Positions 45,807-60,081 of a stretch of 64,000 nt of DNA are shown here, in pieces (position 1 is the stretch's first letter; each line of letters opens with the position of its first letter). The notes beneath the pieces are model-generated. The model saw nothing but the letters and a program-made list of their open reading frames with translations, did not search any database and was not told the DNA's origin. The stretch is from Nitrospirota bacterium (GTDB lineage: Bacteria > Nitrospirota > UBA9217): positions 672,001-736,000 of the forward strand of contig CAWBNQ010000003.1 in the NCBI GenBank assembly GCA_963790205.1, written 5' to 3'. Position numbers and translations under genes: made by a program.

Positions 45807-47304
45807 ACGGCCCTGCTCCGCCGGCCCGCAACAGGCAAGTGGTCCTGCCTTGTCCACAGTCAATCATGCCGTAAGGCTTTAAAACCCCGGCCCTCTGCTC
45901 CATTCACGGGAACTTCGTGCACACGGGAATACAAACTCGGAAAATCAGAAGTCCGTTTCGGAACGATCGGTGTGATCTTCATTGGCGACGGAGCGCCTAC
46001 TCTCTACCTTGTGGCCGGCTCCGGCAACGCGATCACCGAAATATGCGAGGCCAAGAGCACCGCTATGGCCGCCATCAGCTACAAACCTGCCGCCCTGCAC
46101 GCGGGCCATGTATTTCTGCAACAAAGTGTTCTCAGGTTTTTCGAAGCTGAAAATCAGGGTTTCCCCGATTGACTTTCGAGTTCTAAAATATTATGGTTGA
46201 TGGAAAAAAGCAGGTTGCTCCAAAAGTACTTTCTGAAAATAGCACTTCCTTGCATTTACTGGTTCGACGATTCACGGTTAGAACAGTATCAGTATTCCCG
46301 CTTTCGCATTGCCGCATTACCTCGTTTAGCTTTTGCTTTAAAAATAAAATAAACGGAGAACAGACCATGCAGGCTGCTGCTTGTATTCGAGGGAATGGAC
46401 GTGCGTTACTTTGCCTGAGTTTTTTCTTACTGCTTTCATTCGCTCATTCGTCTCCGGCGCAGCAGGTTCCTCCCGGCACCGTTAGCTGCACTGAAAGTGA
46501 TGATCGCAATGGTGAATACTATAAGGCATGTTCGGTAACGTGCGGGCCTGCGGATTGGGGCTATTCCGTTGATATCAGCATTTACGGCGATATTTGGGAT
46601 GCCCGTATAGGGGGGTACGGATGGGTTGAAACAGGATCCTACGGCGTGGCTTTGCAATGCGTAAATGGGTGGACAGCTAGTTGGGTGAACGTGGAATATG
46701 ATACCGAGGCATGGGTTGATTTCGACAACTGGGTGGCGATTCCCATTCCGGCCCCGCCCGCCGTCACCATCAACCCCGTGACCACACCGACGAATCTGCA
46801 AAGCCAGATGCTCAGCGGGACCATGAAGACAGGATCCACAATTGCGGTCACTTGCCCGACGGCAACAGTCGGCTCCGTGACCTATCCCACGTCCACATCA
46901 TGGACGGCAACGCTCAATATGCAGCCGGGGAACAATGCAATAACCGTTATTGCTACGGATTCCGCGGGCACTCCGTCCGCTCTTCAGACAAGCATAATGT
47001 TAAGGCTTCTTTCTGAACGCTTTATTCAGAAAGAAGCTGGTTGGGCTAAGCCGTTGCGCGCCACGTCGCTATGGGATTTCAAATGATTTGTCAGCTTAAA
47101 ACGAAGTCCGCGGAGACAGCATTGGCAGGGGCGTGAGACTTGTTCGGGTGAAAAGCGGCGATTCCGGACTGCTCCGCAAGCCCCTTTCGTAAAAGACTAT
47201 ACAGGAAAAAGGGCTTTTGGGCAATAGGGTATCGTTGCGAAAGACGTGACTTTTTTCGGGGATGGATGTCGGAGTCGGGTTGTTCATTTCAGTGCTTGTG
47301 GTAA

Positions 47305-48498
47305 TCATATTCGCGGCGGTCCTTTGCAGCGCGCGGGCTGCATGATCTCGATTGTGCGCATTCTGCGTTCGCCGCAGGCAGGGCATTTGGCCACGTCAAT
47401 GCCGGCGATCCTGAGCAAAGCTTCCTGCCACGTCTCAGTCTTCTGCTCCGCCTCGTTCTGATCAACGCAGGCCAGAAGCTCTCTGCATTGGTCGAGTTTC
47501 TTTCTGCGGCATCTGTTTCCCAACAGACCGTAATGCCTGATTTTGACAAACCGGTCGGGCAGGACATGAAGCAGGAACCGCCGGATGAACTCATCGGCGT
47601 CCACGGTCATGATCTTGCTTTTGTTGCTGTCCGCGTAGTCGCGCCACCGGAAGGAGATCTTGTCGTCCATCATCTTCACGAGCCGGTGATTGCTGATCGC
47701 GATACGGTGGGTGTATCTGCCGAGATACTCAAGAACGCCTTTTGTTCCGTCGAACGGCGGCTTACAATAGACGACCCACTGCTTCTTGTACAAATCGGCG
47801 ATGAAGGCCTTGAAAACTCCCGGCGACGCAAGATGGCTTACGACGCCGGGGTAGACAAGTTTGTTCTCGGCACGGAGTTTTTTCAGATAAGCGAGAAACT
47901 TCCCCCGAAAGAGTTTCGACATGACCTTGACGGGAAGGAAAAAGCCATTCTTGCATGATTTCCATTTCCGTCCGCCCTTGGACAATCCGCCGCCGGTGAC
48001 GATGTTGTGGAGATGCGGATGATCCATAAGGTTCTGTCCCCAGGTGTGCAGGATCGAGATAAAACCGATTTCCGCGCCCAAGTGTTTCTGCGTATTCGAG
48101 AGTTCCGTCAGGGTTTCCGAAACGGCCTTGAACAGGATCCCGTAGAGGGCCTCCTGGTTCCGGAGCACAAGGGGATTGAGTTTATCGGGGATGGTAAAAA
48201 CGACATGGAAGTAAGGAATGGGAAGCAGGTCTTCTTCCCGGGCCTCGATCCACTGCTCTTTTTTAAGGAACTGGCACTTGGGGCAATGCCGGTTTCTGCA
48301 GGAGTTGTACGAGATCACTTTTGTCCCGCAGTGCTCGCATTCGTCCACGTGACCGCCTTGGTCGGCGGTGCGGCAGGTCTCGATCGCCCGCATGGCGCGA
48401 AGACGATTCAAGGGCATGGGATGAGCGTTCCGGTAAAGAGGACCGTACCGGCGAAAGATGTCCGCGACTTCGATCTGTAGGCTATCTCGCGTGTACAC
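47305..48498 (-). CDS. IS91-family (Y2/HUH) transposase with Zn-binding N-terminal domain
   Basis: YNSCRNRHCPKCQ, YFHVVFT, LHTWG...HPHLH, YLGRY, FIRRFLLHVLP, IRHYG. Confidence 0.95.
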   Translation of the reverse strand: MYTRDSLQIEVADIFRRYGPLYRNAHPMPLNRLRAMRAIETCRTADQGGHVDECEHCGTKVISYNSCRNRHCPKCQFLKKEQWIEAREEDLLPIPYFHVVFTIPDKLNPLVLRNQEALYGILFKAVSETLTELSNTQKHLGAEIGFISILHTWGQNLMDHPHLHNIVTGGGLSKGGRKWKSCKNGFFLPVKVMSKLFRGKFLAYLKKLRAENKLVYPGVVSHLASPGVFKAFIADLYKKQWVVYCKPPFDGTKGVLEYLGRYTHRIAISNHRLVKMMDDKISFRWRDYADSNKSKIMTVDADEFIRRFLLHVLPDRFVKIRHYGLLGNRCRRKKLDQCRELLACVDQNEAEQKTETWQEALLRIAGIDVAKCPACGERRMRTIEIMQPARCKGPPRI

Positions 48499-48519
48499 CG
48501 CGGGTGTCGCGTGTGCAGG

Positions 48520-60016: not shown

Positions 60017-60030
60017 GAACCGGTCATTCG

Positions 60031-60081
60031 CTCGACACTCTCACCGACGGTAGCCACGCCGTGCGTGTGGAGGCAACGGAC
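60031..60081 (+). repeat. Orphan 51-nt copy of a surface-protein Ig repeat
   Basis: Translates to LDTLTDGSHAVRVEATD; 45/51 nt identical to 56081-56131. Confidence 0.85.

Follow-up and report, generated by a model that had tools for sequence, protein, structure and literature searches.

Organization of the locus

The window analysed here is a 64,000-nt stretch of the genome of a Nitrospirota bacterium, in which three genes, named here A, M and E, lie on the same strand and are flanked by genes for a class I/II aminotransferase and an alanine racemase. A encodes a long stalk protein ending in a distinct domain (domain C), M a small protein and E a predicted enzyme; C, M and E each occur once in this genome. 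As an initial annotation made from the sequence had stated, the genes are separated by 33 nt (A-M) and 30 nt (M-E), and each product starts with a hydrophobic, export-type stretch (Kyte-Doolittle maxima over 11 residues of 2.9, 3.5 and 3.1 for A, M and E, respectively). We describe below what is apparently an undescribed split toxin-immunity-stalk system, possibly of a new class. The features are as follows, with positions in the window.

46367..46995, plus strand: 5' piece of gene A; export-type N-terminus, small Cys-containing domain, immunoglobulin-like (Ig) domain (Big_6, E-value 4e-5)
46996..49567, minus strand: insertion element of 2,572 bp; tyrosine recombinase (48520-49377) and IS91-type Y2 transposase (47305-48498)
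49568..54734, plus strand: middle piece of gene A; CHB_HEX_C, NIDO-like, Ig repeats, RCC1 propellers
54735..54736 (about), plus strand: frameshifting 2-nt insertion in gene A, not in the X1 contig
54737..57172, plus strand: 3' piece of gene A; last RCC1 repeats, Ig repeats, Glucodextran_B-type Ig, PKD, domain C
56849..57169, plus strand: domain C, probably NTF2-like (weak matches); predicted docking site for E
57206..57844, plus strand: gene M, 212 amino acids (aa); N-terminal hydrophobic helix, transthyretin-like beta-sandwich, C-terminal helices; putative immunity gene
57875..60016, plus strand: gene E, 713 aa, intact; signal peptide, domain of the zinc-dependent phospholipase C (PLC) fold (aa 20-362), two beta-sandwich domains
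58637..58879, plus strand: beta-hairpin insert of the PLC domain (about aa 255-335), with most of the predicted interface residues of E
58910..58936, plus strand: conserved last-helix motif of the PLC domain (aa 346-354), where third-position G+C content and identity to the nearest relative switch; putative cassette crossover
60029..60081, plus strand: 53-nt remnant of a stalk Ig repeat, 3' of the E stop codon, 89% identical to 56079-56131

The domain-family scan identified both RCC1 and Ig domains in gene A, as the initial annotation had proposed for a giant surface protein, but A (46367-57172) is not one open reading frame (ORF) in this assembly. Two lesions, the insertion element and the 2-nt insertion, split it into three pieces, each open in its own frame, which amount to 2,743 codons once both lesions are discounted. 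In run X1, one 11,887-nt contig (depth 27.9) spans both sites without the insertion element and without the 2-nt insertion, and run X2 likewise lacks the element in gene A. The element, the frameshift and the lesion-free X1 contig rule out a single intact giant ORF here; two paralogous stalk genes flanking the element, hinted at by a 61-nt repeat, are also ruled out, because the element-free contigs join the pieces. The 2-nt insertion near 54735 is either a genuine mutation or an assembly error. The stalk is thus disabled in this particular copy of the triad. The 3' limit of the triad had been placed at 60081 and moves to 60016, where E stops; the Ig-repeat remnant beyond it may have been left by a second cassette since lost.

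E has the predicted fold of a zinc-phospholipase C

The model of E (pLDDT, the predicted local distance difference test score, 91; pTM, the predicted template modelling score, 0.89) superposed on the phosphatidylcholine-preferring phospholipase C (PC-PLC) of B. cereus (1ah7) with a Z score of 18.8 and a root-mean-square deviation (rmsd) of 3.6 over 219 aligned residues; across this enzyme, that of Listeria (8cqm) and the N-domain of clostridial alpha-toxin, Z scores were 17.8-19.0 and rmsd 2.6-3.6 over 207-219 residues. The structural match to S1/P1 nucleases was weaker (Z 12.3-13.8, rmsd about 4), a rank of folds that does not fix the substrate. Searched against solved structures, the domain profile of E matched PLCs only (E-values of 5e-6 to 2e-3), with the ligand motifs aligned, at 17-19% identity. 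On this model E is a Zn-phospholipase C-fold enzyme, with a putative lipase activity.

The His/Asp/Glu pattern on which the initial annotation had based a Zn-phospholipase assignment proved to be conserved as well as backed by the fold: H25, D77, H87, H162, D166, H172 and E189 were kept in 94/94 relatives and H178 in 93 of them, so that side chains able to bind all three metals are present in the sequence. H178 would be the second Zn2 histidine, displaced relative to PC-PLCs. At mature residue 1, which is Trp1 in PC-PLCs, the 94 relatives have Tyr (53), Leu (17), Phe (13) or Trp (11), and a hydrophobic stretch immediately precedes the PLC domain in 86 of 93. A His sits five residues past the predicted mature N-terminus of E, and in P1 nuclease a His is found at a matching distance from the mature N-terminus. 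Beyond the PLC domain lie beta-sandwich domains that differ among relatives, with propeller tails in some.

It was also noticed that E varies between strains. In its last domain (59463-59552), X1 and X2 have an 85-nt segment replacing 88 nt, and a cluster of single-nucleotide polymorphisms is seen in the same runs at 59812-60006; one X1 contig differs from the window at only 7 sites over 49568-59463. The X1/X2 version of E has 14/713 residues changed, none before residue 514. The difference at 59463-59552 may be a local exchange in a possible target-binding loop.

Conservation and distribution of the triad

Relatives of E were found in at least 563 GTDB stretches and at least 529 metagenome stretches; the best 80 of each, plus another locus set, gave a sample of loci chosen on E, from which two duplicates and short loci superseded by larger regions were dropped; it held 175 E genes whose products begin with the PLC domain. 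M ended within 400 nt upstream of E in 140 of the 159 loci with enough flank, and a gene bearing C ended within 3 kb of E in 121 of 130, most of the nine others having arrays that displace C. As an independent check, C and E profiles, which include sequences from some of these genomes, were searched separately in 201 genomes of the phylum: each was present in 30, and both in 27. The six genomes with one alone were accounted for by nearby contig ends (G055, G108, G054), a degraded triad (G074), a C-M pair before a HEAT-repeat gene (G153) and a single-chain form (G063). Viewed from C in this one phylum sample, a PLC was present in 27 of the 30 C-positive genomes, while in the other three the contig ended just after C (two) or a HEAT-repeat gene followed (one). 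The gene-neighbourhood survey that had been suggested for the triad therefore bore it out as real and widespread.

Most named relatives are Nitrospirota, and the hosts on record are Nitrospirota, Desulfobacterota, Binatia and Betaproteobacteria; cultured or enriched strains are named for L117 and L085. Viral contigs and phages held no relative, and plasmids one partial match, on which grounds phage or plasmid carriage was rejected. Neither E nor M is named by a model of NCBIfam or PADLOC. An Rhs-family gene is close to the triad in three loci (L062, L099, L106).

Stalks, domain C and the predicted docking of E

The distinct C-terminal domain that the initial annotation had singled out in A corresponds to domain C, which is about 107 aa long and lies within 3 aa of the protein C-terminus in 155/158 homologues. 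It gave weak family matches (DUF4878 in 3/89, NTF2_SigF in 2/89, TcaA_5th in 1/89) and, as a weak lead, an Atlas score of 0.82 to Cds6_C; it is probably NTF2-like. Sequence searches of the PDB with C and M had no significant match, and the Atlas searches returned solely unnamed clusters or weak leads. Stalks ending in C are adhesin-like proteins of 300-2,500 aa. Among the 34 of 81 complete stalks that were scanned, a shared Ig-PKD-C tail stands behind varied bodies, which across loci are unrelated mosaics of RCC1, FG-GAP, NHL, SBBP, Lcl, PKD, CARDB, fn3 and PASTA domains. With bodies varying this freely, RCC1, which the initial annotation had put in its name for the scaffold, is ruled out as a defining part of the system. 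An N-terminal hydrophobic stretch was present on 65 of the 81 stalks and a lipobox-like motif on 9. Some stalks (L035, 5525-8899; L036, 4209-4661) start with a domain homologous to the C-terminal beta-sandwich region of E, and stalk and E genes may therefore exchange targeting domains.

Complexes were predicted for residues 20-520 of E with the stalk tail and for three controls, using our own alignments. The interface score ipSAE was 0.78 (0.74-0.81) for the C-E pair vs 0.00 for the best control; the mark used is reached by 116/157 solved pairs and 2/215 mismatched pairs and, as our own alignments were used, applies here only roughly. The runs agreed in at least 70% of contacts, with a partner pLDDT of at least 82. 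On the E side 33 of 47 contact residues fall in the beta-hairpin insert, on the stalk side 42 of 50 fall in C, and the best contact pairs suggest strand-to-strand pairing between the two. The prediction supports binding of C to E, in line with the proposal that the effector is a separate polypeptide docking on the C-terminus of its scaffold.

Covariation points the same way. Partial rho was 0.27 between C and the insert vs 0.07 and 0.17 between C and the two catalytic halves, whereas M covaried with the catalytic halves (0.24 and 0.29) rather than with the insert (0.08). With 45 disjoint closest pairs the contrast gave rho 0.50 (permutation p 0.0004). An initial correlation test had been discarded because binding could not be separated from shared descent, and these partial and disjoint-pair tests replaced it.

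The relatives show two arrangements, with the PLC either heading a single chain or, far more commonly in this sample, on a separate chain with the insert. In two single-chain relatives a stalk of 3,000-3,600 aa starts with the PLC; their insert is short or absent, the equivalent of H162 being 95 and 134 residues from the last helix vs 163-219 in 94 triad enzymes. The G063 form has an M-like gene directly upstream and lacks the insert, and no match to C was found in the G063 genome. None of five long PLC relatives carries C. A relative of 2,257 aa retains the insert. The single-chain PLC-stalk relatives without the insert suggest that the insert replaces a covalent link. L228 (G063:C6), of 3,573 aa, is preceded by an M-like gene, and L037 (G023:C42), of 2,965 aa, by a HEAT-repeat gene.

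The predicted interface also reaches the H178 loop of E (H178-V183, M187, I190), near the metal site. It is this contact that would fit a different role for C, as a second inhibitor, with the stalk an extracellular sink or cap that silences E and with M the inner immunity protein. Proteins consisting of a signal peptide and C only, which take the M slot in L025, L026 and L029 and stand beside M in L054, would suit such a role, as would the NTF2-fold immunity families known from excerpts of PMC3482391. However, the 33 insert contacts are, by sequence, away from the ligand helices, C terminates adhesin-like stalks of up to 2,500 aa, and single-chain relatives exist without the insert; we regard an inhibitory C as unlikely and favour docking for display.

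Gene M

M is predicted to fold as a sandwich of the transthyretin type followed by C-terminal helices, an arrangement that is common (Z about 8), and 75/97 M sequences match CarboxypepD_reg. An N-terminal hydrophobic stretch was present in 64 of the 67 triad copies in which the core motif was located, with a lipobox-like motif in 21. In other loci small hydrophobic proteins (L121, L126, L144, L164, L107, L072, L238; membrane character judged by eye) or TolB-like propellers (L123, L124) stand in the place of M, and one locus (L110) has five M copies with 46-81% identity. M had been proposed as either immunity protein or adaptor. A bridging role between A and E is disfavoured by the C-M partial correlation of 0.08 and by the direct C-E docking predicted. 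M can be replaced, occurs in arrays and shows its covariation with the catalytic part and not with C; in these genomic respects it behaves like an immunity gene. Between stalk and M, L230 has a chimeric ORF (7465-8274) that joins an M-like N-terminus to the C-terminal half of C; it is likely a recombination scar.

The M arrays also bear on the choice of target. The same docking architecture might act on eukaryotic grazers (protists), M guarding the producer membranes during export; PC-PLCs acting on eukaryotic membranes have the closest solved folds, and the FG-GAP, RCC1, NHL and Lcl domains of the stalks would be compatible with such targets. Divergent M copies, however, fit a defence against non-self bacterial variants and not self-protection alone, and grazers seem to us quite improbable as the target compared with neighbouring bacteria.

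Arrays and cassette exchange

Truncated forms of E (E') accompany M in arrays. L136 has five M genes alternating with five truncated E genes, followed by one full E, at 72-93% identity. Of 20 E ORFs that have no tail and lie ahead of a further E, 17 end no later than residue ~267 and so encode an enzyme in which the docking insert is wholly or almost wholly missing; two others contain the PLC domain in full, and the last is a complete gene after which a new C-M unit comes. Whole C-M-E units are repeated in L090 and L104. M-E' arrays resemble, by analogy, mirror-image orphan toxin-immunity modules.

Composition changes within the triad. G+C content at third codon positions (GC3) is 0.63 in the stalk 3' piece, 0.44 in M, 0.33-0.54 in the PLC domain and 0.60-0.76 from codon 351; GC3 was below that of the stalk body for M in 43/47 triads and for the PLC domain in 42/47. 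Compared with L034, the window E has 12-38% identity before the last-helix motif and 57-94% from the motif onward, and in the PLC domain L038, L039 and L021 are closer to it than L034 is. The first beta-sandwich showed almost no coupling over all pairs (rho 0.12-0.16), a value that selection on full-length E may depress, and more among close pairs (0.42-0.49). From the arrays, GC3 and mosaicism we infer that variants arise by nested cassette exchange, of either M with the catalytic half or a C-M-PLC block.

We also weighed a role without antagonism, in which a phosphodiesterase displayed on the stalk would remodel biofilm or scavenge phosphate from lipid or DNA, with M as a folding chaperone or regulator. 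The purifying selection between array copies given below would suit it, as would the single enzyme family, a fold common to scavenging PLCs and S1/P1 nucleases, and the adhesin-type domains of the stalks. A chaperone, however, leaves unexplained the five-copy M arrays, the M-E' orphan arrays, the unrelated membrane or propeller proteins that stand in for M and the exchange of low-GC cassettes, and a patchy distribution (30/201 genomes) also speaks against such an exoenzyme, which we consider rather unlikely.

Proposed mechanism

Taken together, we read the triad as a split, inverted polymorphic toxin-immunity system in which E docks non-covalently on the tail of A and M protects the producer, and we put the probability of this reading at about 0.6. 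A, M and E would enter the periplasm by their N-terminal hydrophobic signals, and cleavage of the signal would free residue 20 of E as an N-terminal metal ligand. According to excerpts of PMC10576769, PC-PLCs bind metal through residue 1, and the Listeria enzyme is switched off when a single residue is added at its N-terminus. With a free N-terminus needed, the E fold could not be fused behind a stalk in the usual order without processing. Domain C is predicted to pair with the beta-hairpin insert of the PLC domain, and M, judging from covariation, would bind the catalytic half of E. The A-E complex would then leave the cell, perhaps by type II secretion; the genome has three secretin loci and a GspG gene. 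Type II secretion moves folded multi-chain proteins. Propeller and Ig domains of the stalk may choose the target, and E may cleave membrane phospholipids of neighbouring bacteria. In this assembly, with A broken, E would be stalk-less while M would still protect.

Several points weigh against this reading. No surface anchor was found, so that the A-E complex may be released rather than displayed, and the surface display proposed in the initial annotation was not borne out. Neither an anchor nor a dedicated exporter recurs beside the triad among 871 flanking ORFs clustered from 176 loci, the clusters being mostly regulators, ABC ATPases, a REP-type transposase and sporadic pilus genes. As Trp1 is mostly replaced and the second Zn2 histidine displaced, the substrate of E may differ from that of PC-PLCs. 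The predicted contact with the H178 loop means that C might inhibit rather than display E. In the covariation tests the effect is modest, with the preference of C for the insert held in 83% of subsamples, and the mean contrast for random pairings was rho 0.15 only; moreover, covariation and complex prediction share alignments, and the bounds of the insert were set after the complex was seen, so that the two are not independent. Whole-gene dN/dS (ratio of nonsynonymous to synonymous substitution rates) between array copies was 0.08-0.58, which is purifying, and whole-gene positive selection was not found. Lastly, only one enzyme family was seen beside C; 'polymorphic', a term already used in the initial annotation, holds here for sequence variants and not for different toxin types.

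A bolder version, which we hold tentatively and rate somewhat short of an even chance, would make the triad a new and widespread class of two-chain, plug-and-socket interbacterial toxin: an enzyme dependent on a free N-terminus, a beta-strand clip onto a universal socket, export as a folded complex, two nested cassettes and a layout that mirrors contact-dependent inhibition (CDI) and Rhs loci. The stalks would then be freely exchangeable adhesins, and the cassettes socket-with-plug and immunity-with-active-site. If the reading of the triad as a split toxin-immunity system is right, anaerobic, soil and groundwater bacteria with few known weapons would share a common, unannotated antagonism system; toxin loci could be back-to-front and thus be missed by searches for C-terminal toxins with downstream immunity; and two unassigned domain families would gain functions, together with a natural variant-specific protein socket.

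Insertion element and neighbouring sequences

The element within gene A has an AA dinucleotide at both junctions, and runs X1 and X2 do not have it. Seven full copies, about 99.9% identical, are present in the genome, at window 46996-49567 and on C1, C3 (three copies), C5, C6 and C14 of G000. All seven are preceded and trailed by a pyrimidine around the AA dinucleotide, and three have an identical right-hand flank. A contig of run X3 joins the element end to its start, possibly a circle or a collapsed repeat.

The region upstream of gene A (45800-46366) has 78-89% matches at several other genome sites and is possibly a small repeat element. Downstream, 60157-60220 is a short remnant resembling, as judged by eye, the start of a REP-associated tyrosine transposase, and a cluster with a representative matching this family flanks 8 related loci. 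Upstream of the alanine racemase gene, a short and imperfect repeat of heptamers (60697-60745) is strain-variable and has matches in many unrelated contigs. Elsewhere (1-45806 and 60779-64000) the window is ordinary, with patatin, a two-component and chemotaxis cluster, CbiM/ABC genes, an rpoN-PTS cluster, aminotransferase, alanine racemase and MlaE/ABC. As the initial annotation had noted for autotransporter (type V), type VI and Rhs hallmarks, no autotransporter, type VI secretion or Rhs family was found among the 35 other window ORFs (E-value at most 1e-20) and 10 more ORFs scanned, and TssC/VipB had no match in the genome (98% complete).

Comparison with known systems

With Zn-dependent PC-PLCs, E shares the all-alpha helical fold and the metal-ligand motifs; it differs in residue 1, mostly Tyr where those enzymes have an invariant Trp1, in the insert of about 80 residues, in a variable beta-sandwich or propeller tail and in having a cognate upstream partner gene. 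S1/P1 nucleases and Tox-HET-C belong to the same superfamily, and no sequence-profile match led from E to S1/P1 nucleases among solved structures. Tox-HET-C and NTF2-fold immunity families are listed in PMC3482391, the passages concerned not describing the triad arrangement. A description of the triad was not found in the literature, where coverage of subscription papers was poor, and parts of PMC3482391 beyond these passages might list the architecture. Neisseria MafAB combines a signal peptide, DUF1020 and a C-terminal variable toxin, whereas the enzyme of E is N-terminal and E had no DUF1020 match at an E-value of 0.1 or below.

The proposed triad complex resembles in its logic the Streptomyces umbrella toxins UmbA-C, as described in excerpts of PMC11062931: a secreted particle of several proteins, with variable beta-propeller targeting modules that are joined to a toxin through a conserved docking domain. 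In the triad direct docking of two chains is predicted, with no spoke adaptor, and the toxin is an N-terminal Zn-PLC fold; no common family was found, and the hosts are Nitrospirota, Desulfobacterota, Binatia and Betaproteobacteria. ALF-repeat, UmbB and trypsin-like UmbA Pfam families were absent from the 34 scanned stalks (E-value at most 1e-6) and the window genes, a search that degenerate forms could escape.

Polymorphic toxin systems are defined, in excerpts of PMC4436062, by a C-terminal toxic domain behind a trafficking N-terminus with the immunity gene immediately downstream, by orphan truncated-toxin cassettes with a cognate small gene, by one trafficking module serving unrelated toxins and by neutralisation of toxicity through the cognate small protein. 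In the triad, by contrast, the PLC domain lies at the N-terminus of the product of a separate gene, which has a signal of its own, the partner is upstream (140/159) and the stalk linkage is predicted to be non-covalent. Only one enzyme family was seen beside C, the search from the C side covering one phylum sample. Shared with CdiA, Rhs and MafB, as far as the excerpts of PMC4436062 and PMC3482391 describe them, are an adhesin-like stalk, an enzymatic domain, a small adjacent partner gene, arrays of truncated cassettes, tandem partner paralogues and exchange at a conserved motif. The orphan cassettes have their counterpart here as a mirror image, in M-E' units that lie upstream of the full gene and keep its 5' half.

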